A stretch of 32,000 nt of DNA from Candidatus Iainarchaeum sp. (GTDB taxonomy: Archaea > Iainarchaeota > Iainarchaeia > Iainarchaeales > 0-14-0-20-34-12), in contig JAUSKK010000042.1 of assembly GCA_030649345.1 (NCBI GenBank), forward strand, positions 14,408 through 46,407, given 5' to 3'. A program made the translations under genes and the position numbers. Below, in pieces: positions 1,733-18,541 of the stretch. How positions within the stretch are numbered: position 1 is the stretch's first letter; every line of letters starts with the position of its first letter. A model generated the notes under the pieces. It was not told the DNA's origin, did no database searches, and saw only the letters and a list, made by a program, of their open reading frames with translations.

Positions 1733-4700
1733 TTATTGATCTTTTAAAGTTTTCAAAATACCAGAAAGTGTATGTGTATTTTGCTGGGTTGTCTGGCCGG
1801 TAGTGGGTGGCAAAACAGTTCCGCCTTGAGTTGCACCCATACTTGAACTAGGCTTTATCCAATTACGGTAAGCGTAAACTCTATAGGTTGTATTAGAACT
1901 TACAGGACGAGTGTCAGTAAATTTATTTGAGTTAGGCTGAGTGGCATCCAATAATTTAACAATTCCACCAGGCAAACGTCCAGATTGCCAAGATAATGAA
2001 TCTGACAGTTCATCACAACTTGGATTTCCAGAAGCAGTCAAACGATCACATCTTACTACTGCATAAGCTTGAGCATTATCAACAGCCAGCCAAGTAATCG
2101 TAGCATAATCTTCAGCTGAATTGTCAGTGAATGTATATCTGAAGTCGCCAATTACAGTACTTGCACTCAAACTAATTGACGCAAATTCAGTATGATTTCT
2201 CAATATAGCATTTGAGCCAAATTCATCAAACAATAAAACTGTAGCAAAATATCCGTGTTGTTTAGATAAGGATAATGCATTGCCTGCTTTTGAATAATTT
2301 TCTTGCATTAAATTAAAAGAATGTGTAAAAGCTAAAGAAAGAAGTTTTTCATCCAAAACTGTTTTTCTACCCACTGAACAAATATCTCCAATAGTTTTGT
2401 CATCAGATTCATCATCAGGAGTTTCATCAGCAATAACTAAATCACCCAGTGCATTCAAAGTTTCACTGTTAACAGAACTATCCAAATTAAGTTCTTGTGT
2501 GCACAATAAAGGCAAATAGTAAGCCACTGTATCAGGTTCAGGTGCAGTCCAGTCAATTTTTACACTGCCATAATCAACTGCAGTATTTGTAATTTCAAAT
2601 TCTACAACTTGTTCTTGGAATGGGACCCAAGCACTTTCACTTAAACTTTCGTAGTCTGCAGTTGTTCCATCTGGATTTGTTGGAAGAGGATTTGGATAAG
2701 CTATAACTCTATATTTTGTATTTGCATAAGGTTGATGTTGGTCTGCAGCAGCTTGTTGGCTGTTGGTTGGATCAGTAAATGGAGAACTAACATATTGTTT
2801 TTCGGTTAAGTCTATTTCTTCAGCATTTGCACAGTCACCAGAAACTGTAATACCTGCATCGCATCTAAGTACACCAAAATTGTAAGAAATATCTGGAGTT
2901 ACAGTCCATTCCAATTCAGCTGTTGTTGCGTCCGTTGAAGGAGTAACAGTTAATTCAATTGTTGGCGTTCCTGGAGCAACTCCTGTAACTGCATGCACTG
3001 TTCCAGTTAATGCAGATTCAATTATTTTTTTCTGTAAAGGAATCAAACATTCCAAGATTGTTTTACAATCAGTAGCTGGAGTTGAAGCTGGTGTTCCGCC
3101 TACTAAAGCAGGCTTTACAGAATCTAAAGCATTCGTCCAAGGACTTTGAGCAATTCTTTCGCTGCCATTATAAACATTCACAGAATAAAAAGTATTTATT
3201 GTAACTGGCGTTGCATCAAGATTTGAACTAGTAGAATCTGTTGGCGCTTCAAAATAATTCAGCCCAGAATCATCTGATTTTATTTCATAATCATGCAAGC
3301 AAGAAATAACTCCTTCTCTGCTGGCTTCACAGCGGGTCATGGAATAACTTAAATTAGGTATTTCTAGTGCAGTCCAAGACAACCTTGCTTTTTGTGCACC
3401 CTGTTCGTCTAAGCTGACTTCGATTGTTACATCCAAAACTGTTGGAACAGTATACCAGCCGTTTCCGCCTGTATGTATGTCGCCTACATTAAAGCTGTCT
3501 ACGTAATAGCTTGTTGTTTCAACAATAGGTTTGTTGTTTACAGAATCAATGAATGCAGTATAACCATCGCCTTCAGTTCTTGGGATATTTACAGCACCAC
3601 GAGTAATTGCAGTATCATTATTCATATCACAAGGAATTGAGCCATCAGTATTTACAGCATCACATCTGTAAGGTTTAAAGAATTCAACATCTGGATTGTG
3701 GGCTTTCATATACAAGCCTGCAAAAATTCCGCCATTTTGTTTGATTAAATCAATACTTAATTCTGGAATATCATCCACTCGAATCCAGTCTGGGCTTTCA
3801 GCTAAAACAGTATCCGTATCCTCTGCATTCACTGCAATTATTTTGTACGAAAACAAACCAATATTTTCTCGGCTTTTTAGTTCATCTACATTATTAACAA
3901 CAGTAATTCCGTCTGGGTCTTTAAATTCTGTTTCAGTTCCTTCCATATAATTATTCAACAAAGAAAAAGCACCATCGTACTTACCATAACCATCTTTGGA
4001 ATCACAATCACTCAACTCTTGTTCAGCACATCTAAGCACATCGTATTGCATATTTGTTAAATTATTTGAAGTCCAAGTCAAAGTAACATTTTCTTGGTCT
4101 GTTCGTTCAACTGTTAATTCAACACTCGGTGCATTGGGATCAACTTCAACAACATAATCTGTACACTTTTGAATACTGGTTCCATCATCCAATGGAATCA
4201 CTGCACATAAAGTACGATTGCCTTCACGGGTTTGTTTAAATGTTCGAGTAATGACTGGATAGTTTCCGGATGGCATGGATTCAATTTTTTCTTTAAGCAA
4301 ACCAGCATTTTTTAATTCAGAATCAGCTTGGTTTGTTTCTTTGGATTTGAATACCAGCATTACATTTTCTAAATTATCAGCTGTTTTATTGTTTAACCTA
4401 ACATGGAATTCGAGTTGCTGGCCAACATAAACGTTTGAGCCCGGAGTAATTAAGTCAATTGATGAAATTTCTACAGTGTCAGCAGTTACACTTGCACCTG
4501 AATTTTCTTCTTTTTCTGTTGGTTTTTGCCAATCGCCGGAAGTCGTTACAAGCGTCCGGGTTGCTGGATCAAATGCTCCAATTCTGTAAGAAAAATCATC
4601 GATGTTTTCTCTGGATTTTAATGCATTAAGAGCATCTGGAATATTATCTGGATCAACAAAGCTTGTTTCAGTAATAACAGTACTTTCATCTAACAAACTA

Positions 4701-7700
4701 TCAGGCCCATCATCACAGTCAGCAATATTTTCTTTTTCACACCTAAACACATTGTATTCAACATTATTCGGCATGTTTTCTGCAGTCCAAGTTAAAGTAA
4801 TTTTATCTCCTTCGCGTACAGCTTCGTCTAAAGTAAGAGTTGGTTCATCCGAAGGTTCTGGTCCGCCTACAATACTTCCGTCTACTCGAACCATTGGACT
4901 TGTTCCTAAAACAGTTCCATCTGGATCTTCTGCAGTGACTTGATATTTTGAGGCATCATTTGGGTGAGAATCTATAATGGAAGTATCATCAGTAGTTGGT
5001 TCTGCTCCATTGCGAACCAAGGGAACTAAAGGAACTAAATCATCGTCTACACAATCATTTGGATTTGGTTTATCACAGCGTACTGGTCTGAAAACATAAT
5101 CTCCTTCAGGACCCCAAGATAAATGAGCACCATCAGATTGTTTGTCTACAGTTAAAGTTACGTCTACTTCTGGCATAGTATCTGGAATAAGTCCCCAGCC
5201 GCTTTCAGCAATTGGGTTTCCGTCACCATCTTCAACCAAGACATTGTAAAATGTTTTATTGGTTGCAGTATTGGGATCAATGGCTTGAGTTACACTGCCT
5301 GAAGTAACAGGTATACTGGTTGGATTTTTTGTACAATCTGTTGAATCATCATTCATTTCATCACAGCGCACAGGATTATATTTAACGTCTGCTGGAGGAT
5401 TTTCTAAAGCAGTCCAAGTTAGTTTAGTTTTTCCGCCAAGCAAAGGAGTTATAGTTAATGTAACAACATTATTAGGATCAGCTGCAGGCAAAGCATCAGG
5501 AGTAAATGCTCCTGCATTTTTGAATAATCTAGCATAAGCTAAAACTGTGGCCACATAATCTTTGGCTTTTGCACTTAAGTTTTTACAATTTACATTTCCT
5601 GGACCATATCTGTAAGAAGCAATTACTAAAATTTCTCGCGTAGTTAAACCTAAATCTTCCAAGCCAGGCAAAGTCATTGCATTGTATTGTGGACCTTCAC
5701 ATTTCAGTCTTTGTTTTGATTTTGCATAGGTTTCAGCTGCACGCTGTAAATTAGCACCAGGAGTAGTCCATAAAGGAATATTTTCTCCAGTACACACAAC
5801 AGTATTACAGGAAAAAATTTCACTTTTAGTTGCATCCGCAGAATTAATAGTTCCAACATCAACAGCAACTACATTTCCGTGTTTCGGTTGAGATCTTTGT
5901 TCTCGCAAAGAAACGTTTATTGTTTTTAAATCATCGGCTGGATCAGGAACTTCAACTGTTTTTCCGCCAAATAAATAGTCAGCAACATCAGCAGGTCTTT
6001 GATAACCCCAAGCTAAATTAATAGTTGAAACCAGCCCCAAGCCTAAGCCAATTGGTTTTTTATCCAAACAAGCAAATGCTTGATTGTCAAATTTGGATTC
6101 AGCAGCACTAATTCCAAACAAAATAGCTGGAGGAACATCTAAACTAGGCTGATTTGAAATTGCAGTTACATTTTCAACAAATTCTGGATTTAAAACAGTT
6201 CTAGCATTTGCTGAATTAATATTTCTTCCAATTCCTGTTTCAGGACATTCTTCTCCAGTTTGACTTGAAAAATAATCATTTAATTGCATTATATTAGTTA
6301 AAGCAGGTAAATTTAATTCTCTGGATTTAGCTTCTACAGCTGGCGCAATATCTTCCAATTCTTCAGTTAACTGAGTTCTGGATCTTCCAGGCCCAATTAA
6401 TGGCGGGCCCAGATCAGCACCAGTTGGAGTTGGTCGTCTAAGTACATCTGAACCAGTTCCAGCAGGAGCAGTACCTGCACCAGCACCTGAAACACTGGCA
6501 CCAGCACCTGAAACACTAGCACTAGCTCCAGCAACAGCTGCAGCTGGGCTTGGAGGAGGAGTAGAACCAGCATCTCGAGCTTCTGTACTTGCAAGTAAAG
6601 CAGGAATATTAACCCAATCACTGGCAGTGTACAAGTTACCATTGGAAGAATCGTAAACTCCTACAGCCACTTTTTGACTGGATTGTACACCATATTCACC
6701 AGATGAATACGAAAATCCAGGCCCAGATAAAGATTGCACACCAGGAGTTATTTGCGCTTCAGTTACAGTCGTTGGAATATCAGAACAATTTCCTGTTCTG
6801 CAGGCGAATAAATAATAGTTTGGATTTGAAATTGCTGGACTTACAGCAACTGCAACAGAAATTTCATTATTTGATTCCCTAGTTGGAGTTAAAGTAACTA
6901 CTGGATTTGAAGCATTTGAAGTTGAGCTAACTGAAACCCAATTACTTTTTCCGATAAATGGACCATTAGGTAAACTTTTTGCATAAACAATGTACCCAGT
7001 AGTTCCAGAAGCATTGGCTGGTTCATAGACAGTGGAGGTTGTATCTACTTGACCATCAAAGAAAAAACTAGGGCATTCATTGTTTACAAATTCATAATAA
7101 CAAGAAAACACAGAATAATTTAGTGGTGGATAAGGTCCATCAATTGTCCAAGCTAATTGAATGCGTCCAGGATGATCTGTGCTTGGAGTTTGAGTTAAAT
7201 TAATATTAGTTGGAACGCCTTTGTTTTTTTCGTCTCCAGCTAAAGCCAACAAAGCTTTGACATCATTGCTGGTGAAAGTAAATTTACTGACAGTAACTTT
7301 TCCGTTTTGGTTGGAATATTTTAAAGTACCAGTGCCTGAAAAAACAGTAAAATCCGCACTATTTGGGTTTAAGATTCCGATAAAACTAGTTTTATCAAAA
7401 CCCAATTTGTTTGCAAATTTTTGAGGAATAGTACTCGAAACTCGATTTTCAGAAAAAGCATAAAACCAAGCATTCAGCAAATCCAATAAAGGAGTTCCAG
7501 TTGTTTGACTGCCTGGAAAAATTTTGACATTAATAACCCAAGTATCGTCTACACTGAATTCATTTACTCCAGAACCAATGTCAGTTCGCTTAAGTTGAGT
7601 TTCACTTACGTTAAATCCAGTTTCTTTAAATGAATTCAATTGATCTTCATTGTATGCCAAAGTCGTACTATAAAGTGCTGAGTTTACGCTGACTAAAAAT

Positions 7701-7747: not shown

Positions 7748-7897
7748 GCAATTCACTTAGTTCCGTGAGAACAATTTTTGCTATATTATACTAATATAAA
7801 GGATTATTTAAAGCTTTGCTGGAGAGATTGACAAAAGCTCAGTAAATAAATTAAGTTAATTCCAAATTCAGCCCAACCAGAAAAGAATAAAAACAGT

Positions 7898-7917
7898 TTG
7901 TATAAGATTGTATAAGA
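7898..7917. repeat. Perfect 10-bp tandem direct repeat ttgtataaga x2 in a divergent promoter region
   Basis: 7898..7907 and 7908..7917 are identical. Each unit has a TATAAGA core about 26-27 nt upstream of the two candidate ATGs (7928, 7937) of the DUF3368-like gene. Confidence 0.6.
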
Positions 7918-7927
7918 ATGTAGTGGG

Positions 7928-8431
7928 ATGACATTAATGAGGAAAGTTGTGCTGGATGCAGATGGCTTGATAAAATTGACCAAAGCAGACATTCTGGAAA
8001 AAATTGTTGAAATTCTGAATTGCAATATATCGCAGGAAGTTTTCACAGAAAGCGTAGAAGAAGGAAAAAAGCTTTTATTTGAAGATGCATTTAAAATTGA
8101 GGAATTGATTCAAAATAAAAAAATAAAAGTTCATGCAACAGAAAAAAAGGAATTCTCGGACTTGGATGGATTTGGAAAAGGAGAAAGAACCAGTTTGGAA
8201 TTGTATTATCAAATTCATGCACAGGCCATTATTAGCGATAATCAAAGATTTTTAAAAGAATTGGAAAAAAAACAAGTGCCGTTCACTACACCGGCAGGAA
8301 TACTTCAGGCACTGTATTGGAACAAAAAATTAAACAAATCAGAGACATTGAATGCATTGGAAAAAATGAAACCATTGATTCAATCAGAAATTTATATCAG
8401 CTTAAAAAAAGAAGTGGAGGAATCTAAATGA
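7928..8431 (+). CDS. PIN-like nucleic-acid-binding protein (DUF3368-type), toxin-like partner of UPF0175
   Basis: VVLDADGLIKLTKADILEKI N-terminus. GKGERTSLELY...AIISDNQRFLKELEKKQVPFTTPAGILQAL matches the DUF3368 pattern (GEaeaI.LA...DD..aR..A...g..v.Gt.giL). ATGA overlap with the next gene. The start could be 7928 or 7937. Confidence 0.7.
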   Translation: MTLMRKVVLDADGLIKLTKADILEKIVEILNCNISQEVFTESVEEGKKLLFEDAFKIEELIQNKKIKVHATEKKEFSDLDGFGKGERTSLELYYQIHAQAIISDNQRFLKELEKKQVPFTTPAGILQALYWNKKLNKSETLNALEKMKPLIQSEIYISLKKEVEESK

Positions 8432-8733
8432 AAGCAAACACTGTCAGTTATCCATTAAGAATTTCAGAGGAAATAATGCAGATCACTGAAATACGAAAGC
8501 GCGAAGAACATGTGGACAAAACCACAGCCTTAAGACAACTCTTGTACAAAGGAGTGGAAGACTATGTTTTGGAGTTGTATGCAAGCGGACGAATCACTCT
8601 AACTAGAACGGCAGAATTATTAAACAAAAATGTTCACGAAGTACTTCAATTGGCTGGAAAAAAAGGAGTGAAAACTGGAGCAAACTCAGAACAACAAAGG
8701 CAAAGTGCGAAAACAGCAGAAAAATTGTTCTAA
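8428..8733 (+). CDS. UPF0175-family antitoxin-like protein
   Basis: VEDYVLELYASGRITLTRTAELLNKNVHEVLQLAGKKGV matches the UPF0175 helix-turn-helix core (A.elY..g.iSlg.AAEl.g....f...l...gi). GGAGG lies 8 nt upstream. 4-nt overlap with the DUF3368-like gene. Confidence 0.7.
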   Translation: MKANTVSYPLRISEEIMQITEIRKREEHVDKTTALRQLLYKGVEDYVLELYASGRITLTRTAELLNKNVHEVLQLAGKKGVKTGANSEQQRQSAKTAEKLF

Positions 8734-8785
8734 ATTCAAAATTATTTGCCGCAAACACAGAATTGACCTAAAAAAGAGACAAATT

Positions 8786-9049
8786 ATGGCTAATAAAAAA
8801 ATTCGGATCACGCAAGAAGCCTATGATTTTTTGGCTTCACAAAAGCGCGAAAATGAAAGTTTCAGTCAAGTAATAATTCGAATATATTCTATGGATCCTG
8901 CTGGACAAAAAATGGATAATCTTAAAATTGCAGACCGGCTAGTGCAAAAAAGCCAGCTAACAAAAAAAGACGTACAAAAGCTCAGCAAAAAAGTAAACCA
9001 AGCTGCTGGAAAACATGCAAAAAAATTATTAAAAAGTTTAAAAAACTAA
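8786..9049 (+). CDS. COG1753/PF02697-type antitoxin-like protein (87 aa) with no adjacent PIN partner
   Basis: The ATG at 8786 gives MANKKIRITQEAYDFLASQKRENESFSQVIIRI. This is collinear with the VapB at 24052 (MAKLIAVSEPAYQELKNLKKENESFSKVILRL). The Lys-rich C-terminal tail differs. The track ORF 8705..9049 looks like an N-terminal over-extension. Confidence 0.6.
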   Translation: MANKKIRITQEAYDFLASQKRENESFSQVIIRIYSMDPAGQKMDNLKIADRLVQKSQLTKKDVQKLSKKVNQAAGKHAKKLLKSLKN

Positions 9050-9059
9050 TTCTAAAAAA

Positions 9060-9671
9060 TTAGCAGGTTTGTCTTAATTGATTAATGCCTGTTTGAGATT
9101 GAGCTAAATTATCCTGCAATACTTGTTCGTCTACAATAAAATTAGAAACTTCAGCGGTTACAGCTTGCGCAGGATAAGCCGATTGAATGGCTTGAACTTT
9201 AGCATTGACAGCCAAAGACTTATTCACAGTCTCAACTGTCTTGGCATGGGTTTGTTCAAACAAACTTAAACTCGGACACGGATTGGAAATAACTGCATCC
9301 AATTGATTGCTGGCTTTCAAAGAATTATATCTTGCTTGAGTTGAGTCAACCAACAATAAATGCAAATCAGTTAATTCTAAAATCGCTTGTTTGTCTTGTT
9401 CGTTTACAAATTTTTTTCCAGAAATTTCTGTTTTAAAATCCTGCAAAGCTTGCTTGACTTCCGTAAAATTTTCATTAGAGTATTCCAATAATTGTTCTCC
9501 GATTACAGCAAAACTAAAACTTCGGGTAATTCGAATATTATCCAATTGGTCAAATGCATTTGTAAAAGTCAACGGAGGTACTGGAAGAGTTTGAGCTGGC
9601 TGGAATACAAATACATAAGCCAAAACAGCGACTACAACTAAAACCAATAAGATTGCGAATTTGTTTGCCAT
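9060..9671 (-). CDS. Membrane-anchored coiled-coil protein, paralog A (203 aa)
   Basis: ATG at 9671. Single N-terminal TM segment (FAILLVLVVVAVLAYVFVF), then a Gln/Leu-rich helical region. Two Cys (NPCPSL and the C-terminal RQTC). Collinear with 17252..17848. Confidence 0.8.
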   Translation of the reverse strand: MANKFAILLVLVVVAVLAYVFVFQPAQTLPVPPLTFTNAFDQLDNIRITRSFSFAVIGEQLLEYSNENFTEVKQALQDFKTEISGKKFVNEQDKQAILELTDLHLLLVDSTQARYNSLKASNQLDAVISNPCPSLSLFEQTHAKTVETVNKSLAVNAKVQAIQSAYPAQAVTAEVSNFIVDEQVLQDNLAQSQTGINQLRQTC

Positions 9672-9692: not shown

Positions 9693-9716
9693 AAACTTAT
9701 TTTTAAAGCTTGGGTT
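9693..9716 (-). promoter_or_regulatory. BRE/TATA-like promoter for paralog A; one copy of a perfect 24-bp direct repeat
   Basis: Minus strand reads AACCCAAGCTTTAAAAATAAGTTT. The TATA-like core ends 24 nt upstream of the ATG at 9671. Identical 24-mer at 10363..10386. Confidence 0.5.
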
Positions 9717-9729
9717 GGGAACCCGAATA

Positions 9730-10101
9730 TTAGCCTATTTTTTCTTTAATTTTACGATATGCGTACTCATCTGCCTTTGCATGAAACATTGATTTAAAGG
9801 TCCAAATTATTTTCCCCGACTTCAATCGGTCAGTAAAGAAAGCCGTTACAATAAATGGATCTTTGGACAATACTTTAACAACTACCACCAGATACTTTTC
9901 ACCTACGGGTGTTTTAGGATAAAGCCGATAAAGTAAATGAATTGTTGGATCGTAACTGCTTTCTCGAATTTCTTCTGGATCGAACAAAACCTGTCGGATT
10001 TTATTAAACTGATTTTTGAGTTCTGGTTTTTTCAAAATATGAAGTTTTCGTTCGCTAGTTAAACGAAATAATTTTCCGAAACGGTCTTTCAAAAACTGCA
10101 T
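9730..10101 (-). CDS. Putative toxin (barnase/EndoU/RelE-like fold suspected), partner of the DUF2283-like gene
   Basis: ATG is 1 nt after the upstream stop (TAACATG). Pattern LHILKKPEL ... IRESSYDP ... KYLVVVVKV ... FIVTAFFTDRLKSGKIIW resembles small nuclease toxins paired with DUF2283. The family assignment is tentative. Confidence 0.55.
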   Translation of the reverse strand: MQFLKDRFGKLFRLTSERKLHILKKPELKNQFNKIRQVLFDPEEIRESSYDPTIHLLYRLYPKTPVGEKYLVVVVKVLSKDPFIVTAFFTDRLKSGKIIWTFKSMFHAKADEYAYRKIKEKIG

Positions 10102-10102
10102 G

Positions 10103-10345
10103 TTAACGCGCCAATTTTTTTAAGCGATTAAATTGCACTTGAATTGGAATCAAAATCTTCTCAGTTTTTTGCCCGCGTTTTTTTAAATTAAAAATAGCGA
10201 TTCCGATTACATTTCCTTTGGAATCTACGCGTTCAAAAACGTCATTTCCCAAGTCACGAAAAAAGCCTTTCCGATTAGAAGCTGAAAATTCCAAAAAGTC
10301 ACTTTCAGTATCCAACCAAACTTGAAGTTTTCCATTCGCTTTCAT
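10103..10345 (-). CDS. DUF2283-family (YuzE-like) antitoxin-like protein (80 aa)
   Basis: MKANGKLQVWLDTESDFLEFS...VFERVDSKGNVIGIAIFNLKK matches the DUF2283 pattern (...y d.e.D.lyi......vv.Dld.eG.vvGIEIl..s). The track start at 10363 is TTG; the first ATG is at 10345. Confidence 0.7.
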   Translation of the reverse strand: MKANGKLQVWLDTESDFLEFSASNRKGFFRDLGNDVFERVDSKGNVIGIAIFNLKKRGQKTEKILIPIQVQFNRLKKLAR

Positions 10346-10362
10346 AGTTATATTATACAACA

Positions 10363-10386
10363 AAACTTATTTTTAAAGCTTGGGTT
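10363..10386 (-). promoter_or_regulatory. BRE/TATA-like promoter for the DUF2283 cassette; second copy of the 24-bp direct repeat
   Basis: Identical to 9693..9716. It abuts and overlaps the first base of the stop codon of the 2285-aa gene (10386..10388). The TATA-like core lies about 20-33 nt upstream of the ATG at 10345. Confidence 0.5.
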
Positions 10387-13300
10387 TATTTCAAACCAGT
10401 CTTACGCCAACTGGTTTCAGCTAAAACAAGACCGCGTACATCGCTGGCTACAACTTTAACAAAATAATCTTGGGTTCGGTCAGGCAAAACAAAACTATAG
10501 TCTGTTTCGTTCAAAAATTGATTTTCAATTTTGCACGCCCCTTCAACATTTGAATTCAAAGTACGCAATGATTGACCACGCTTCAAGTTCCGTAAAAGCA
10601 ATGCTTGAATGTCTTGCTCGGTTAATTGAGGCGTAGTATGACACCACCAGATGTCATAATTAATATTTTCTTCTGGATTCCAGGCAGTCCAATACAAAGA
10701 CACAGTAAACTGAGTTGGATCACTTGCAATGGATTCAACATTCAAAGTAGTAATATTCAAGCTGGCTTGTTTGCGTTCAATAAATAAACTGCGAATAATG
10801 TTTTCATTTCCGTATTGAATACATTGCAACAAAGAAGTACATTGTCTTTTTTGTTTAAATTCATAGGGCAATTCAATAATGGAAGAATGCGTCCAATCTG
10901 AACCATTTGGTTTACAGCCTAATTTTGGACAAATGGAAACACTTAACCACAAATTAGGTTCAGTGTAATCTTTCAATGCTTGTTCTAACGTTTTGATTTC
11001 GTTTCCAATTTTTACATTCTGCGTTGGACTATACTTGAATGTTTTAATTTGTTCTTGGTTTGCTTGAATTGCTTTGGGGGGTGAAGAAATAAATTGCTGT
11101 AAATTTAGTCTATCCGCGCCCCAGTTTCTTTCAGCAGTTTTCCATAAATCAATAGAGTAATTGTAAAAATCACACGTTGAATTGAATTGGATTTTCAATT
11201 CTTGTTCTTGAGATAATTTTCCAGTCAAATTATTTAATTCAGAAACATTTGTGATTGTGACAGTACAAGAAGAATTTTCTGAATTGACTTGGGTTGGAGC
11301 TTGAACAAAGTCTGAAACTTTTAAGGTTTCTTTAATATCTGAATCTATTTTGGCTGAATCTACAACACGCAAGGCTTGAATTTTGTAAAATAAATTACCA
11401 GAAGCAGAATTATGCACAGATTCTGTTTCAGTAGTTCGAGTGAGTTCAGTTAGCTTATCATCACTGCAGTTTTCAACACTAGATTCAGTACAAACCAAAA
11501 CAGAATATTGGTTGGCTAAAGGAACTGTTGGCCAACGTAATTCAACAATTAAGCTATGAGTTCGTTTGGCTTTGACAATAAAAGCTAAATCATTTAATTG
11601 TTCTCGCAATGTTTGACAGCGTTCTCTGATTTTTTGTTTCACGTCATCATTGCCAGTAATTGCGGCCAGTTGTTCTTCTAGGTTTAAAGGACACGAATCC
11701 AGTAAACCCAATAATAAAGCGCGTTGTTCTTCCGGCAAACTTAATGCACTGATTTCTTGTTTTAAAGAATCAGCTGTAATGATTACATCCAAGCATTTTT
11801 CTTCTGTGGTTCCAGAAATGCGGGCACAAATTCTATGCTGGCCTTCTTTGAGTCTTCCAGTTAAACCTGGAGCTAAAGTAACAGTTTGAGATTCTGAAAT
11901 ATCAATAGGCTGAGTTAAATAAGATGAAATATTCAAAGATTGGCCGTCAGCAAATAATTCAACTCCAGCTTCTCCTATGAATTTAATGCTTCCAGCGTTT
12001 TCCAATTCAACACGTGCTTCCAGGAAAGCATCGGCCGCAATATTGGGAAAAGGAATTAATGTAAATGATTTAACTTTCAAGTCAGTTTTTTCTGCACTTA
12101 AAGGAATGGGTTGTGCAAAATTAATTTCTGAAAAAGTTTGCTTCCAGCCAAATACATTTTGAACATAATTCAGCAAAGAATCTCCGCCTACATCAGAGCT
12201 AACTTTCAATAAATATCCTGCACCTCGATTGCCATTGTAAGGTGTTAATACAAAATGCGCACTAGCATTTGGATCGGCACAATTCATGTGTTCAATCGGT
12301 GTTGTGCCCAGTCCTTGATCGGATGCAATGCTTAAAACTTCTACAAAAGAAACTCCAGGCAATCCTTCGACTTGTTTGCGTAAAATTGCTTTACAAGGAT
12401 TTTCTGGAAGTACGGATTCAGCAAAGTTTTTAACTAATTTCATGTTTCCAGTTAAGTTTGCAATTCCGACAGTTAAATTTTCTTCAGGATTTGTTTTTGC
12501 GGTTTCTGCTTGAGTATTCAAATAATAAAAAGGCAATTGCATTAAACCGTAATTTCCCATTTCTGGACTTGGAGATGAATGGGTTTCAATTTTGCCGGCA
12601 TCAAAAGAAGGATTGCGGACCATAATCATGGCGGCAATTAAGTCTTTGGCTTTATTGGAAAAAACATGTTCATTGTCAAGTGATTCACTTAATTTTTGAA
12701 TTGCTTGACCATATTTGATAGCTTGTTGTGCCTGGTAATAATCATACTGGTTTGAAGTTTTTCCTGTTTCAATCAATGAATGCAAAGACTGAATGCTTCC
12801 ATTAAATTGTAAATACAAAGTAGCTGTATTTGTGCTTAATCTAGGAATTAAAAAGTCTGGAACTACAGGCACTGAAATCCATTCAGTTACTGCAACTAAA
12901 ATTTGATCTGAATTGTAGGCAAATAATTTGTAAAATTTTACGCTTACAGCTTCATTTAATCCAATGGAATAATTTCGAATAACTGGTTCATTAATTAATT
13001 GAACTTGAGTTCCAGAACCGCACAATAAATCATTGGTTTCTTTACAAGAACTTAGTTTAAAAGATTTAATGGAACTATCCAAAACTGCTGGCAAACCAGT
13101 ACTCCAGTCAAAACTTAAATTTTCAGTGTCCAGCCAGCGAAGATTCATAGAAGCTTTTGGCACTTCTGCTAATTGAACTTTAGAAGAAGCCAATATAGGT
13201 TCGCGTACTTTACCTAAAGATTCGTGTAGTTTATATCGAATAGCTTGAACATAATACACTGGCAAAAAATCTTCGTCAGATAATTCAGAATCAGAATAAA

Positions 13301-16300
13301 CTAAATTGGTTTGAGTGGAAAGCAATTCAAAGTTTGCAGTATCCAAACATTCAGTTATTCCAGCAGCACAACGATATACTTCGTAGCTTTCAGCTTGCGG
13401 ATGCTTGCTCCAAGTCAATTGCATAGAATCATTCAGTAAACGATTTACGTTTAATCTAAAATCAAATCTGCTTAATTCGTCTCTTAGTTTTATGCAATTT
13501 GCTTTAATTTTTTCTTTCAATGCAGTGAAATCTGTATTTGGATATTTTCGTGTAAGGTCTAAAAATACAGTATCTAAATCACTTTCAGAGGCAGGGCAAG
13601 CAATTGTAAGATTGGCTAAAGCTTCTCGGTCTATGGGTTGAATCGGCAAACGTGCAATCTCCGGAGCTAGTTCAGCTATAGGTGAAGGTTTGGGAACAAT
13701 TTCCACTGCAGGCAAACAGGATTGAATAGTAGTTTCATAGTCTTTGACTTTAGCGCAAATTAAAATATTGGTTAAAGATTGAGTTAAACCTTTTTCTTCA
13801 ATGGATTCAGGAGTCTGCGGTGCTTGATATAGGTGAGTCAATAGTCCTTGATCCAATTTAACTTTGGCAACAGGACCAGTGTGTTGTTGGGTTGATTCCA
13901 AAACTGAAACCAATTCTTGCGATACCACAGTAGATCCAATGTTTAATTGAATTACGGCATTTTCTAAATTTACTGAACCATTGTTTTGAATTGAAATTGA
14001 AAATTCTTGTTCTGAATCTTCTTCAAGTTGGTTGCTTGCAGGAATTGATGAACTATTCAAAGTCAATAAAACTTGTCTGGGGTCAAATGCAGGCAAAGGT
14101 TTTACTGGAACAATAGTCCAAGAACTTTGAGCTATCACTTGATTGCTTGAATTCAGTGCTTGAATTTTGTAAAAATTTTTAACTTCACTTGCTGGAATAC
14201 CAAAAGTTAAAGCATTGGGATCTGAAATAATTTCTGGCGGAATTTGAGTAAGCGAACATTCACTTGCATTGATTTTGTCACAAGTTAAAATTTGAAATGT
14301 TTGCATTTGTGGTTTAAGTAAAAGATCGTATTGCCAATGTAAGCTTAAATCACCTGAAGAAATCCATTCAGAGCTTAAAGTCATATCTGAAACAGGTAAT
14401 GCTTGAGGTGGAACTGTGCGTTCTTGTTCGAGTCTTTCTTGTTCTTTGAAATAATTTTCAAATAAAACTTTCCAAGCTAAAACTCGAATGGCATAATAAT
14501 GATCTCCACCAGCAGTACTTTGTACAATTTTCTGGCCTTTTTGTGCACCTTTTCCATAAGACACACAATCTGTTCCAGCTGGACCCCAATTGTAGCCATT
14601 GACTGCCAAAGCTTCATGCATGGTAATTCCGTATTCTTCTAAGCCTGCAATCAAACCATACGTATTTTCGCATTTGTTGTAAACAGTAGCTGTTTGCTGG
14701 GGTTTATAGCCAGGGTATGCTGACAAGTAAGCAATTAAAAAATTGGTTCCTTTTTCCATATTTTTTTCTGGATTTTGTTTAGTTCGTTCAGTTAAAACAG
14801 GCCCAATATTGAATCCATTAAAGTGAGTAGAATTAAACGACAAGCGAGCAATATGCATTAAACCATAAGATTGCTGCCTAGGCTCTAAGCCTGCACTTTC
14901 ATTGGCTGAATTTTTTTCAAAATTGCTTTCTTGTTTAATCACTCCAGCCAATAATGATTTGCCGGAATTTCGAATTACAGTTCCAACTTCTTCCTGCAAA
15001 CGTGCTCCATGTAAAATCACTAAATCGCGCACTTGTTTGGATGCATGGGTCCAAGTGCGTTCCACATTTTCTGAAGTAAAAGTTCCTCCAGCAAATGGTC
15101 CACTGCGAATAATTTCTCGAATAACTGTATCCAGTCTTTTTACTTTTCCATCCGGTGTATCCACGTAAACAATATTGGACTGCAATGTTGCTGGATCTGT
15201 AGCTGTTTCAACTGAACAAGATTTAATCGCTGGATCTGAAACCAATACTGCACAAATATTAATGGACCGGCGCAATAAAAACAAACCACTGCCGTGATAC
15301 CAAAAGGGCTCGGAAAATTCTTGTCCTGCCTTTACAGTTGCTTCGCTTTTTTTAATATCAACACCATTAATAGTAAATTTTACTTGGATGTCTTGAGATT
15401 GTAAAGAATTCAATTGAGCCCGCATGGAAAACTTTTGGCCTGGAACAATTATTTCCGGCGCCAAAACAACAGCTTGAATAGCCAAAGGAGGAATTGCAAC
15501 TTGAACAGTTAATGGACCAGTGCAAAATTCTTGGTCTGGATTTTTAATTTGAGCACACAATTCATAACTTCCTGAAGTTACGGAAGGCAAAGTGCTTAGA
15601 TCAATACTGGAAGGAACACCAACTTGTTTTTGAGCTTCAAGTGTATCCATTTCATAACTGGCTAATTGAGCACGAACTGTTCCTTCTTTTTTCAAAACTA
15701 AATTTACTTGCGGAGTCACAGAATTTTCAGTTAAATTTTTCACAGTAGTTGTAATATTAAATCCTGTTCCAGCTACAATGGGCTCAGTGAAACTCAATTG
15801 AATATCTAAAGCTTTGGCTGGAGCTCCTGAGCCAGCAGAGGCTGAAGTAGCTGAAGCTTTTTGAGCATTTTGATTGGCTAAATTTTTTAATATTTCTGCT
15901 TTGATAGTTTGAAGTTTTGCAGGATCTTTCATTTCAACTTTAGCCAAATTTGCAACCCAATACTTTGCAAAACCAATCAATGGAACTTTGCTGACTGAAA
16001 AAGTATAATCCAACAAACCATCGGAAACCGTCATGGATTGTCGACCAGTGTAAGACCACACGGATTGACCAGCACCAGTGTCACTTGGATACGGAACTAA
16101 AGGAAAATTAGGAACTTGAATTCCTTGAGTGGAAAAATTAATTTGAGTTTGAGTTGAATAAACATAAAATTCGTCTGGCGCTTGCAGACAATCTTGGCCA
16201 AAATAGTTTTCACAAACTGAAAAGTAAACAATAATTTTGGCATCTTCTGAAAAACCATTTTGACTTGAAAAAAATACTTCTTGAGTACTGAGATTGTCTT

Positions 16301-17243
16301 GTCTTAAATTAAACGAAACTGGAACAGTTTGATTTTTGAAATTTTTGGATTCATCGCGATAACCATTCCAAGATTTAATTAAAAAAACACTAATTGGGTC
16401 TTGTTCAACAACTGCTGGTTCAGGAGTAGCTACTGGCTCTCCAGGCAATGGTTCAGAAGAAGGAGCTTCAGGATATAAATCTGCACATGAAAATCCTGTG
16501 GTTTCAAAATTAACTTCCGTTTCACAGGTTTCTTTAGAATAAATACTTGAAAATAAAGAATGTGTAAATAAGCCAATATTTTCCCAGTTAAATTCAGGAG
16601 ACGGATCCCATTTACGGTCGTCAGCTTTTCGCGTACCTGCATTGCATGTTTCATAAAATCCAGCAGAAGGTTCTAATTCATAATGACCGCGAACAAGAGT
16701 ATTGGCAATATTAAATTTATTTTGATAAATTTGCTGGAAATATGTAAATAAAGAATTCAATTGAGCATACTGTTGAACAGTATATTCTTCTCCTTTTCTT
16801 CCAGAATTTTCCAATTCAATTCCAATGGATAATTGTTCCATTGAATCTAAACTTTGCAAATCAGAAACAAATTGAGTATTGTTGGCACACGCAGAAGTAT
16901 TTTGCCCAGAACCTTTTAAATGATCTGCAACTTTTTCTAAATCACAAATATAATGAATGGTTCCATCTTTAGCAATCAAAAGATGAGCAGAAGTTCTATT
17001 TTGTTTAAATAAACGCAAAGAATTTGCAGTATCTGTTCCAGTATGATGCAAGACAACTGTTACTGAATCCGTAAAGTTTGCAGGCGTTCGATTAAATCCT
17101 GCTTTCGGATTAGAACACAAAAATCCTTCGGTTCTATGATCTTGAACATTTAAAACAGAGGGAAGTAAATCAATGGCAAAAATTGAAACAGAAAACAAGA
17201 ACAAAATTGAGAAAACCAATGCCAAGCGAAGAAAAGGTTTCAT
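10386..17243 (-). CDS. Giant secreted multi-domain murein-hydrolase-like protein (2285 aa): signal peptide, Amidase_2, two SLT-like domains, CARDB-like and FN3-like modules
   Basis: 6.9 kb open frame. The track start is GTG at 17261; the first ATG at 17243 gives MKPFLRLALVFSILFLFSVSIFA. See the domain sub-features. Cys occur in close pairs inside modules (YEVYRCAAGITEC, SSCKETNDLLC, VLVCTESSVENC, LCAQIKNPDQEFC, ICAVLVSDPAIKSC). No C-terminal TM segment. Confidence 0.9.
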   Translation of the reverse strand: MKPFLRLALVFSILFLFSVSIFAIDLLPSVLNVQDHRTEGFLCSNPKAGFNRTPANFTDSVTVVLHHTGTDTANSLRLFKQNRTSAHLLIAKDGTIHYICDLEKVADHLKGSGQNTSACANNTQFVSDLQSLDSMEQLSIGIELENSGRKGEEYTVQQYAQLNSLFTYFQQIYQNKFNIANTLVRGHYELEPSAGFYETCNAGTRKADDRKWDPSPEFNWENIGLFTHSLFSSIYSKETCETEVNFETTGFSCADLYPEAPSSEPLPGEPVATPEPAVVEQDPISVFLIKSWNGYRDESKNFKNQTVPVSFNLRQDNLSTQEVFFSSQNGFSEDAKIIVYFSVCENYFGQDCLQAPDEFYVYSTQTQINFSTQGIQVPNFPLVPYPSDTGAGQSVWSYTGRQSMTVSDGLLDYTFSVSKVPLIGFAKYWVANLAKVEMKDPAKLQTIKAEILKNLANQNAQKASATSASAGSGAPAKALDIQLSFTEPIVAGTGFNITTTVKNLTENSVTPQVNLVLKKEGTVRAQLASYEMDTLEAQKQVGVPSSIDLSTLPSVTSGSYELCAQIKNPDQEFCTGPLTVQVAIPPLAIQAVVLAPEIIVPGQKFSMRAQLNSLQSQDIQVKFTINGVDIKKSEATVKAGQEFSEPFWYHGSGLFLLRRSINICAVLVSDPAIKSCSVETATDPATLQSNIVYVDTPDGKVKRLDTVIREIIRSGPFAGGTFTSENVERTWTHASKQVRDLVILHGARLQEEVGTVIRNSGKSLLAGVIKQESNFEKNSANESAGLEPRQQSYGLMHIARLSFNSTHFNGFNIGPVLTERTKQNPEKNMEKGTNFLIAYLSAYPGYKPQQTATVYNKCENTYGLIAGLEEYGITMHEALAVNGYNWGPAGTDCVSYGKGAQKGQKIVQSTAGGDHYYAIRVLAWKVLFENYFKEQERLEQERTVPPQALPVSDMTLSSEWISSGDLSLHWQYDLLLKPQMQTFQILTCDKINASECSLTQIPPEIISDPNALTFGIPASEVKNFYKIQALNSSNQVIAQSSWTIVPVKPLPAFDPRQVLLTLNSSSIPASNQLEEDSEQEFSISIQNNGSVNLENAVIQLNIGSTVVSQELVSVLESTQQHTGPVAKVKLDQGLLTHLYQAPQTPESIEEKGLTQSLTNILICAKVKDYETTIQSCLPAVEIVPKPSPIAELAPEIARLPIQPIDREALANLTIACPASESDLDTVFLDLTRKYPNTDFTALKEKIKANCIKLRDELSRFDFRLNVNRLLNDSMQLTWSKHPQAESYEVYRCAAGITECLDTANFELLSTQTNLVYSDSELSDEDFLPVYYVQAIRYKLHESLGKVREPILASSKVQLAEVPKASMNLRWLDTENLSFDWSTGLPAVLDSSIKSFKLSSCKETNDLLCGSGTQVQLINEPVIRNYSIGLNEAVSVKFYKLFAYNSDQILVAVTEWISVPVVPDFLIPRLSTNTATLYLQFNGSIQSLHSLIETGKTSNQYDYYQAQQAIKYGQAIQKLSESLDNEHVFSNKAKDLIAAMIMVRNPSFDAGKIETHSSPSPEMGNYGLMQLPFYYLNTQAETAKTNPEENLTVGIANLTGNMKLVKNFAESVLPENPCKAILRKQVEGLPGVSFVEVLSIASDQGLGTTPIEHMNCADPNASAHFVLTPYNGNRGAGYLLKVSSDVGGDSLLNYVQNVFGWKQTFSEINFAQPIPLSAEKTDLKVKSFTLIPFPNIAADAFLEARVELENAGSIKFIGEAGVELFADGQSLNISSYLTQPIDISESQTVTLAPGLTGRLKEGQHRICARISGTTEEKCLDVIITADSLKQEISALSLPEEQRALLLGLLDSCPLNLEEQLAAITGNDDVKQKIRERCQTLREQLNDLAFIVKAKRTHSLIVELRWPTVPLANQYSVLVCTESSVENCSDDKLTELTRTTETESVHNSASGNLFYKIQALRVVDSAKIDSDIKETLKVSDFVQAPTQVNSENSSCTVTITNVSELNNLTGKLSQEQELKIQFNSTCDFYNYSIDLWKTAERNWGADRLNLQQFISSPPKAIQANQEQIKTFKYSPTQNVKIGNEIKTLEQALKDYTEPNLWLSVSICPKLGCKPNGSDWTHSSIIELPYEFKQKRQCTSLLQCIQYGNENIIRSLFIERKQASLNITTLNVESIASDPTQFTVSLYWTAWNPEENINYDIWWCHTTPQLTEQDIQALLLRNLKRGQSLRTLNSNVEGACKIENQFLNETDYSFVLPDRTQDYFVKVVASDVRGLVLAETSWRKTGLK
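12117..12749 (-). other. SLT-like domain 2, residues ~1505-1715, with a non-canonical catalytic motif
   Basis: NYGLMQLPFYY is conserved and LLNYVQNVFGWKQTF is collinear with domain 1. The E-S-x-F position reads VRNPSF (12603..12620), so there is no Glu. Confidence 0.5.
14457..15029 (-). other. SLT lytic-transglycosylase-like domain 1, residues ~745-935
   Basis: AGVIKQESNFEKNS (the Glu codon at 14928..14930 checked by hand), SYGLMHIA, ALAVNGYNWGPAGTDC, HYYAIRVLAWKVLF. Confidence 0.7.
16587..17078 (-). other. N-acetylmuramoyl-L-alanine amidase (Amidase_2/PGRP-like) domain, residues ~62-225
   Basis: VVLHHTG (17037..17057 checked by hand), SAHLLIAKDGTIHY, SIGIELENSG, YTVQQYAQLNSLFTYF, VRGHYELEP. 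The order and spacing are typical of AmpD / T7-lysozyme / PGRP zinc amidases. Confidence 0.7.
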
Positions 17244-17251
17244 ATATGATA

Positions 17252-17848
17252 TCACCCACACAAAGCTTTTAATTCGTTCACTTGTTCCTGTGAAGAGATA
17301 ATCAAGTTTTGGAGTATTCTTGTTTCGGTTTGTAAATCCAGTAAGGAAAGCTCAGCAGCTTGCGCAGAATATTGTGTTTCAAATTCATTAATTTTTTGGT
17401 TCAAAGCAAGAGTTTTAGAAAACACTTCTTCGAGTACTGTTTGTCTTTCTTCAAATTTAGAAATATTCACACAAATTTGCTCTGAGCTTATTTCGTCTAA
17501 TTCAAAATTGAGTTTAGCTAAATTTTTTCTAGATTGAGTTTTTTCTGCATTCAATAAATAAATATCCGTTAACATAACAACTGAAGGACTGCTTGAATTT
17601 TGAGTTTTATAGGTTTGCAGAGATTGGATTAATTTAGTTAAACCAGAATCTTGTACTTGAATTAAGTCAAAATCAGTTAGTACAAATTCTATTTGGTTTT
17701 CAGAATAAAAAAACGCAATCTTTGCTTGAGTTTCTGTAATGGATTTAGGTTGAATGCCAGAAAAAAGAGTGGAAAGATACGGAAATGCTAAATACAAAAT
17801 TCCAATAAGAACTAAAACAAGGATTAGGTTTTTCCAGCGGTTTTCCAA
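17252..17848 (-). CDS. Membrane-anchored coiled-coil protein, paralog B (198 aa)
   Basis: N-terminal TM segment (LILVLVLIGILYLAFPYL), then a helical Gln/Leu/Glu-rich region. Two Cys (EQICVN and the C-terminal KALCG). Only a TTG start is available at 17848. The stop is 8 nt before the ATG of the 2285-aa gene. Confidence 0.75.
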   Translation of the reverse strand: MENRWKNLILVLVLIGILYLAFPYLSTLFSGIQPKSITETQAKIAFFYSENQIEFVLTDFDLIQVQDSGLTKLIQSLQTYKTQNSSSPSVVMLTDIYLLNAEKTQSRKNLAKLNFELDEISSEQICVNISKFEERQTVLEEVFSKTLALNQKINEFETQYSAQAAELSLLDLQTETRILQNLIISSQEQVNELKALCG

Positions 17849-17904
17849 AATATCACTACATATAATACTTAAATGAAATAAATAAAGGTTTGGGTTGGTT
17901 TACA

Positions 17905-18318
17905 CTACTTAAATGGGTTAATAACTTCAATTCCGGAAAATTGGTTAAAATCTTTTTCATTTTCAGTAAATATTTTTGTAACACCCTGTTCTAACATAGT
18001 AAAATAAATCAATAAATCCCAAAAATCATGCTTAGGGTTATCTTTTTGAATAACATTCCAAACAGTATTCTCAGAATATGAAATTTTAATCCAGTTGGAA
18101 GACTTAAGAACAGCCAATGCAACCAATTTTGCATTTTCAAGCTGTTCCATGGTTAATTTGCGTTTGCACAGATAATAAAATTCAGAAACATTCTGAGTTG
18201 AAATATAAGCATTTTCTTTAAAGCCTTTTTTTACAAGCTCTTTGGCAATTTTATGCTTTCGAGAATCCGAATTATCCAGAGCATAAAACAAAATATTGGT
18301 ATCAATGAGTGCGTTCAT
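17905..18318 (-). CDS. vapC: PIN-domain ribonuclease toxin VapC
   Basis: MNALIDTNILFYAL, NVSEFYY, FWDLLIYF, FTENEKDF. The ATG at 18318 is preferred over the track GTG at 18327. 17-nt overlap with the upstream RHH gene. Confidence 0.85.
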   Translation of the reverse strand: MNALIDTNILFYALDNSDSRKHKIAKELVKKGFKENAYISTQNVSEFYYLCKRKLTMEQLENAKLVALAVLKSSNWIKISYSENTVWNVIQKDNPKHDFWDLLIYFTMLEQGVTKIFTENEKDFNQFSGIEVINPFK

Positions 18319-18541
18319 GAAGTTCACTTCGAGTTTTGTATCGCAAATTTGAAACTTTCATTCCTTTTTCAATTACAGACAAAGCTTGGTCAATTACAGT
18401 GTCTTTTTCATTTAACCAGACAGAAAAGGCTTCGCTTACAGCTTTAGCCAAATAACCTTTCTTTTTGCCGTATTTTTCTTCCGCTTTTTTTCTAAATTGG
18501 TCAGCTAACTCTTCAGATATATTCAAAGTAATCGTATGCAT
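18302..18541 (-). CDS. vapB: Ribbon-helix-helix (CopG/VapB-type) antitoxin
   Basis: MHTITLNISEELADQFRKKAEEKYGKKKGYLAKAVSEAFSVWL fits a beta-strand plus two helices RHH pattern. It lies directly upstream of the PIN gene and overlaps it. Confidence 0.75.
   Translation of the reverse strand: MHTITLNISEELADQFRKKAEEKYGKKKGYLAKAVSEAFSVWLNEKDTVIDQALSVIEKGMKVSNLRYKTRSELHERTH

Follow-up and report, generated by a model that had tools for sequence, protein, structure and literature searches.

Here we describe a two-gene cassette of toxin-antitoxin (TA) type that lies between two perfect 24-nt direct repeats in a 32-kb stretch (32,000 nucleotides; hereafter the window) of contig JAUSKK010000042.1 from the archaeon Candidatus Iainarchaeum sp. 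The cassette comprises a DUF2283-family gene (P0001) and a PBECR2/DUF4258-like toxin candidate (P0002), and its sequence context suggests that it probably arrived by insertion with long target duplication, in an event that also captured a promoter. A promoterless cassette of ~646 bp would have entered the junction between the stop codon of a gene for a giant protein (giant gene 1) and the start of a gene for a protein with an N-terminal membrane helix (TM paralog A, or TM-A), and would have duplicated 24 nt of its target, namely the putative BRE/TATA promoter of TM-A. Afterwards, the upstream repeat (copy 1) would drive a leaderless DUF2283-toxin transcript while the downstream repeat (copy 2) would still drive TM-A. 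Post-segregational killing by the toxin (addiction) would then stabilize the insert.

Read on the minus strand, the 24-mer AACCCAAGCTTTAAAAATAAGTTT occurs at 10386-10363 and again at 9716-9693, identical at 24/24 positions and with a spacing of 670 bp, as an earlier note on this DNA had reported. It is the longest exact direct repeat of the window, and two matches to it appeared in 0/100 dinucleotide shuffles of that sequence. Identity drops abruptly beyond the 24 nt, a 35-nt extension being 86% identical. We searched the whole genome, a small, DPANN-type, metagenome-assembled sequence of 1,315,630 bp in 55 contigs (34.5% GC) that contains a full-length match of 1368 bits to the archaeal small-subunit (SSU) model. 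These two sites were the only ones found with up to 3 mismatches allowed, and the next-best sites carry 5 mismatches. With two genomic copies only, the idea that the 24-mer is a generic promoter consensus, which the earlier note had raised against its own proposal, was rejected.

The repeats fit the cassette tightly. Only 17 nt separate copy 1 from the DUF2283 start codon (left junction, tgttgtataatataact) and 13 nt separate the toxin stop codon from copy 2 (right junction, tattcgggttccc), which bears out the earlier description of an exactly bracketed two-gene unit with one copy adjoining the stop codon of the 2285-aa gene and the other preceding the TM-A ATG. The insert holds the DUF2283 gene and the PBECR2-like gene only, with an intergenic gap of 1 nt. 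The insert contains no integrase, transposase or other mobility gene, and its neighbours, which are a giant surface protein gene, a TM gene and TA genes, include no tyrosine or serine recombinase. No terminal inverted repeats were found at the cassette ends.

Both copies are placed where a promoter would be expected. For a leaderless archaeal gene, an A/T-rich TATA box should lie some 26-32 nt before the start codon or transcription start. Across 1,093 crude gene calls in this genome, the start of TTTAWA shows a sharp maximum between -31 and -26 relative to the ATG: two 3-nt bins hold 100 and 63 occurrences, where the background is ~14 per bin. This implies that the mRNAs of this organism are mostly leaderless or near-leaderless. 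Within the 24-mer, TTTAAAAATA and TTTAAA start at -32 relative to the DUF2283 gene and at -36 relative to TM-A. The repeat is therefore a plausible archaeal BRE/TATA promoter at leaderless distance, in keeping with the earlier suggestion of a BRE/TATA-like element correctly spaced to the next ATG. Because only 17 nt lie between copy 1 and the ATG, the cassette has no room for a promoter of its own at working distance, and its transcription would have to come from copy 1 or from read-through of the giant gene.

A broader pattern search points to the original owner of this promoter. The motif AACCCAA-N0-4-TTTAWWW occurs at five genomic sites, three of which are the candidate promoters of TM paralog B (TM-B), the DUF2283 gene and TM-A; the other two apparently lie inside coding sequence. 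The TM-B promoter region, AACCCAAACCTTTATTTATTTCATTT, matches the 24-mer at ~14/24 positions, with ~10 diverged. Because TM-B has a diverged version and no other promoter does, the 24-mer appears native to the target, being an element of the TM gene family and no part of the cassette. The earlier note had pictured a promoter-carrying cassette; insertion stands as the best explanation, while the role of promoter carrier most likely does not, given the native origin of the 24-mer and the 17-nt junction. The divergence of the TM-B promoter further implies that perfect identity is unnecessary for function, so that a 24/24 match argues for recent duplication over selection, and a perfect repeat beside a diverged paralogous promoter suggests that the insertion itself was recent. 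A 10-nt core of the repeat, AAGCTTTAAA, has 32 genomic copies, 7/32 of them before genes versus 13% at random; this enrichment is weak, and we do not term the core a consensus.

The gene order of the locus agrees with an insertion. On the minus strand, a VapB-like/PIN pair is followed by TM-B, giant gene 1, copy 1, the cassette, copy 2 and TM-A. In relatives, a TM-family gene stands immediately 5' of a large-protein gene, and successive units of this kind can be separated by a short promoter spacer. This is the layout that deletion of the cassette plus one repeat would leave here, and the empty site is accordingly predicted to read ...GGTTTGAAATAAACCCAAGCTTTAAAAATAAGTTTACTCTAATAATTACAG...

The TA-like character of the cassette, likewise proposed earlier, is supported by the relatives of both genes. 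P0001 matches Pfam PF10049 (DUF2283) with E=4.9e-4, below the curated cut-off, and PF10049 was found in 4/7 of its homologues (51-64% identity). P0002 alone gave no Pfam or other family match. An exhaustive HMMER search recovered 508 relatives of ~105 aa, and among 32 aligned sequences (P0002 and 31 HMMER homologues) PBECR2 matches are present in 30/32 and DUF4258 matches in 5/32. Conserved family residues (H21, P42, K69, T86 and others) are present in P0002, which is 55% identical to a canonical toxin. An AlphaFold (AF2) model built from a 21-sequence alignment was confident, with a pLDDT of 85; its top Foldseek matches in the PDB were HigB1, a Salmonella TA toxin, HigB2, CdiA-CT and ParE2, all non-significant (E 0.07-1, TM-score 0.3-0.47).

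In other species, a DUF2283-like open reading frame (ORF) adjoins a related toxin at 72/80 loci. The toxin comes first at 69/72 of these and overlaps the start of the DUF2283 gene; the order found here, DUF2283 then toxin, occurs at three haloarchaeal loci only (L050, L053 and L054, among L043, L045, L047 and L049-L128 compared), and these three are among the closest to P0002. A reversal of gene order during this insertion was rejected, since the three haloarchaeal loci have the same order. Compared with DUF2283/PBECR2 (DUF4258) modules of BECR-fold RNases, the pair shares both families, adjacent and in the same orientation, and differs in its gene order and in a 22-aa toxin tail. By sequence, the pair is a member of a widespread module of TA type with a predicted function; we know of no toxicity or neutralization assays for this DUF2283/PBECR2 subfamily. 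The C-terminal tail of P0002, FKSMFHAKADEYAYRKIKEKIG (22 aa, window 9730-9798), is absent from all aligned relatives and forms a low-confidence helix in the model. Its faint likeness to the DUF2283 N-terminus YDAKADAIYIRF led us to consider a remnant of a second DUF2283 gene, a speculation that found no Pfam support and was set aside.

Cassettes of this family appear to move. The toxin family is patchy, being found in 7/196 genomes of the order and scattered over many archaeal and bacterial phyla, with one distant toxin relative in viral contigs; no paralogous cassettes were found elsewhere in this genome. Within one genus, two loci (L041, G107:C6, and L042, G106:C10) carry a 576-bp DUF4258-like/DUF2283 cassette at 88% identity between unrelated flanks, and here the sequences let mobility be seen directly in relatives. 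At L041 the cassette sits behind a tRNA-Arg gene, between two copies of the last 20 nt (3' end) of the tRNA.

Similar scars recur both within this genome and beyond it. A local exact-repeat scan identified at least five other TA cassettes of this genome bracketed by repeats of 15-34 nt (Table 1), and these repeats all differ in sequence, each deriving from the end of a neighbouring host gene. For repeats within 2.5 kb, chance alone would yield ~0.25 genome-wide at lengths of at least 18 nt, ~3 at 16 nt or more and ~12 at 15 nt or more; as repeats of 15 and 16 nt are expected by chance, those two cases count only through their exact bracketing of a cassette. In other species, exact repeats of 16-44 nt bracket 7/64 testable cassettes of the family, versus 0/120 controls, for which windows of matching geometry were moved 1 kb aside (Fisher p = 4.9e-4), and some lie within imperfect repeats of up to ~100 nt. 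At L104, in a Gemmatimonadota genome, the stretch immediately before the ATG of the following gene is duplicated, as in the present case, and at L060 part of a tRNA-Gly is duplicated around the cassette.

These comparisons also bear on the route of entry. Repeat lengths from 15 to ~100 nt across cases, together with the lack of a recombinase accompanying the cassette, make a route through host functions the most likely one, and a specialized enzyme cutting with a constant stagger is hard to reconcile with the variation in duplication length. Host functions might have filled in variably staggered breaks, or a template switch during replication or repair might have produced the duplication.

Several observations weigh against, or at least temper, insertion with long target duplication. 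The promoter role assigned to the 24-mer follows from its position, and the insertion event is deduced from the occupied site, not read from an empty one: no empty-site allele or excised form was present in the genomes and contigs searched, and 40 related genomes had no DNA similarity at the locus. Among the species representatives compared, this archaeon has no close relative. Across the 196 genomes of the order, TM-A homologues reach no more than 29% identity and stand in other contexts, and metagenome contig scans returned 0 TM-A relatives and 0 exact 24-mers. The 24-bp duplication falls short of the >30 bp criterion of Furuta et al. (PMC2853133). The cassette matches its surroundings in GC content and so bears no compositional sign of foreign origin, and the fold search of P0002 gave no significant confirmation of a BECR fold.

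Four other explanations were weighed, of which integration of a circle in the manner of Campbell, a homology-mediated route of the kind proposed in the earlier note, survives best, although we regard it as unlikely. A circular cassette carrying one 24-mer, for instance one that a sister cell had excised at this locus, would enter by a single crossover at the chromosomal promoter, making the repeats recombination sites instead of a fresh duplication. A crossover of this sort gives exactly the present layout, the direct repeats would permit excision and re-entry, and the repeat and layout data fit such a history as well as they fit a fresh duplication. However, the first duplication of the host promoter would still need explaining, which leaves the circle a possible secondary route; homologous recombination over 24 bp would involve a very short match, and other cassettes have repeats of different target sequence, each of which would require a prior history of its own.

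Site-specific recombination, which the earlier note had also entertained, appears less probable still. The 24-mers would then be attL and attR, flanking an element mobilized in trans or decayed to its TA pair, and the duplicated tRNA 3' parts around related cassettes (tRNA-Arg at L041, tRNA-Gly at L060) are indeed a classical integrase signature. Yet we found no evidence for it at this locus: there is no integrase in or beside the insert, the target is a putative promoter and not a tRNA or a conserved gene end, and repeat sequence and length differ at every locus. Decay of a larger element down to a fit of 17 and 13 nt, repeated this tightly at several loci, also seems unlikely.

It is more doubtful again that no insertion took place, with the cassette old at its site and the neighbouring promoters either held identical through selection for a shared regulator or rendered so by gene conversion. 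Each copy could plausibly act as a promoter, and a related one precedes TM-B; but that relative matches at only ~14/24 positions, so identity is not needed, and the perfect 24 nt include positions outside the BRE/TATA element and end abruptly. The cassette family is, moreover, patchy and demonstrably mobile. Finally, a chimeric join made by a short repeat in a metagenome-assembled genome of 55 contigs is scarcely credible, as a 4,988-bp Logan contig (run SRR13727527) has the identical arrangement across both repeats and 24 bp is below the usual assembly k-mers, leaving no ambiguous path. That contig possibly derives from the same raw data as the genome assembly, and its agreement indicates that the arrangement is independent of any single assembler; exact-protein look-ups returned one contig only, identical to the window.

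Insertion with long target duplication, our preferred reading, has its closest precedent in bacterial restriction-modification (RM) systems (PMC2853133; reviewed in PMC3874152, Mruk & Kobayashi 2013). Repeats in those cases occur only at the insert, are long and of variable length, in many instances extend into the 3' end of a neighbouring gene and are unaccompanied by mobility genes, and the mechanism is unknown (PMC2853133). No archaeal case passed the screen of Furuta et al. 2010, which used an operational cut-off of >30 bp (PMC2853133). The statement in the earlier note that such units are not a standard annotated class in archaea needs the correction that this closest precedent exists (PMC2853133). 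The cassette described here resembles the RM cases in being a small selfish, 'addictive' unit without a recombinase, set between direct repeats that are unique in the genome and vary from case to case in sequence and length. It differs in its type II TA cargo, its archaeal host, the length of its repeat (24 bp versus >30 bp), the apparent use of the duplicated target as a promoter by the insert, and the lack of an empty-site genome for comparison. We therefore file it as a variant that works like the RM class, on the strength of four features (bracketing, uniqueness, lack of mobility genes and differences from locus to locus), with a repeat below the >30 bp cut-off and no empty-site comparison. 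Insertion with long target duplication of RM gene complexes was reportedly described by Nobusato et al. in 2000 (Gene 259:99), and to our knowledge such scars are known for bacterial RM genes and not for archaeal TA cassettes.

Two further classes of element share the flanking repeats. Like integrase/att elements at tRNA genes or gene 3' ends, the insert is flanked by direct repeats of target sequence, and its relatives are flanked by tRNA 3' parts; unlike them, it has no integrase, measures only ~0.65 kb and occupies a putative intergenic promoter. Insertion sequences (IS) and transposons also duplicate target sequence on both sides, whereas here there is neither a transposase nor terminal inverted repeats, and the 24-bp duplication is far above that of a typical IS and varies in length (15-34 bp at the other cassettes).

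Table 1. Features of the cassette locus (window positions) and repeat-bracketed TA cassettes elsewhere in the genome
Feature	Position	Strand	Description
Giant protein gene 1	10386..17243	-	2285 aa from ATG at 17243; Amidase_2 and SLT domains; stop codon 10388-10386 overlaps first base of copy 1
Repeat copy 1, AACCCAAGCTTTAAAAATAAGTTT	10363..10386	-	Putative cassette promoter; first base is last base of giant gene 1 TAA stop
Left junction, tgttgtataatataact	10346..10362	-	17 nt, copy 1 to DUF2283 ATG
DUF2283-family gene P0001	10103..10345	-	80 aa, presumed antitoxin
Toxin candidate P0002	9730..10101	-	123 aa, PBECR2/DUF4258-like (BECR-type RNase)
Right junction, tattcgggttccc	9717..9729	-	13 nt, toxin stop to copy 2
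Repeat copy 2	9693..9716	-	Putative TM-A promoter; TTTAAA starts 36 nt before ATG
TM paralog A	9060..9671	-	203 aa, N-terminal membrane helix, no known family; 21-nt spacer after copy 2
TM paralog B	17252..17848	-	198 aa, directly upstream of giant gene 1
TM-B promoter region, AACCCAAACCTTTATTTATTTCATTT	17871..17896	-	Diverged relative of the 24-mer
Fic/Doc gene	this genome		Repeat is last 34 nt of thyX, two copies
RHH+DUF3368 pair	this genome		Repeat of 22 nt, exact, within ~60 nt
Pair with weak RelE/HigB similarity	this genome		Repeat of 20 nt
AbrB-like+PIN pair	this genome		Repeat of 16 nt
MazE/AbrB+PIN pair	this genome		Repeat of 15 nt

The neighbourhood of the cassette has features of its own. 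The surface-protein locus is unusually rich in genes of TA type (252-1353, 7928-9049 and 17905-18540), including a GNAT gene, two PIN genes, a UPF0175-like gene, a VapB-like gene and the DUF2283/PBECR2 pair. In relatives, and in the pair formed by TM-B and giant gene 1, the TM gene abuts the giant gene directly. Between TM-A and giant gene 2, by contrast, window positions 7757-9059 hold three convergent genes on the plus strand, of which one is unknown (167 aa), one UPF0175-like and one VapB-like. This block is probably another insertion; no bracketing repeat of at least 15 nt was found for it, nor were direct repeats of at least 15 nt found around the other TA genes of the window. TM-A and TM-B are 26% identical. 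At a relative's locus with two TM-family genes (L033, G052:C19; 2453-3130 and 8714-9390), the N-termini are identical over the 25 residues shown and the upstream regions over at least 55 nt, which by sequence is a tandem duplication of gene plus promoter and another way of multiplying a TM promoter.

At both left junctions (9714-9729 and 10384-10398), pairing is possible between the first bases of the repeat and the adjacent upstream sequence, which would form 5-bp stems: GGTTT-gaaat-AAACC behind the giant gene, and GGGTT-ccc-AACCC behind the toxin gene. Such stems could be due to chance, could be terminator-like elements or could be related to insertion. An Rfam search of the window gave 0 matches.

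Two further repeats were observed elsewhere in this genome (G000). On contig C7, a 26-nt perfect direct repeat (5502-5527 and 6715-6740) surrounds a 1.2-kb segment with one 334-aa minus-strand ORF that matches no family. The repeat equals the opening 25 nt of a gene of FKBP type, which now has a new upstream region, and the segment looks like the same kind of scar with cargo that is not of TA type. On contig C28, a near-identical block of ~61 nt containing the palindrome TGAAAATTTTATAGATTTTCA (3178-3238 and 4185-4245) lies ahead of two genes, one DUF35-like and one mevalonate-kinase-like, and has the look of an operator or promoter repeated within the mevalonate operon.

Compact archaeal genomes, those of DPANN among them, hold very many TA pairs, and we know of no established explanation for how they move without transposases or integrases. 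A scar that recurs within one genome and across phyla offers a concrete, testable trace of one route of TA movement, and it carries bacterial long target duplication, as described for RM genes, over into archaea and into a further group of genes with addictive character. More tentatively, and with the odds in our view against so broad a claim, small TA cassettes of archaea and bacteria may in general be mobile units that lack their own recombinase and spread by a host pathway duplicating 15-100 nt of target sequence. Promoterless cassettes like the present one would then survive only where a host promoter was copied, and capture would be a selected part of their life cycle and not an accident. 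The particular twist of this case is that the duplicated target appears to be a complete promoter of the leaderless type. A single event would thereby connect a foreign operon to the host's transcription and leave the adjacent gene unsilenced, a simple route for selfish cassettes to gain expression and for host promoters to multiply.

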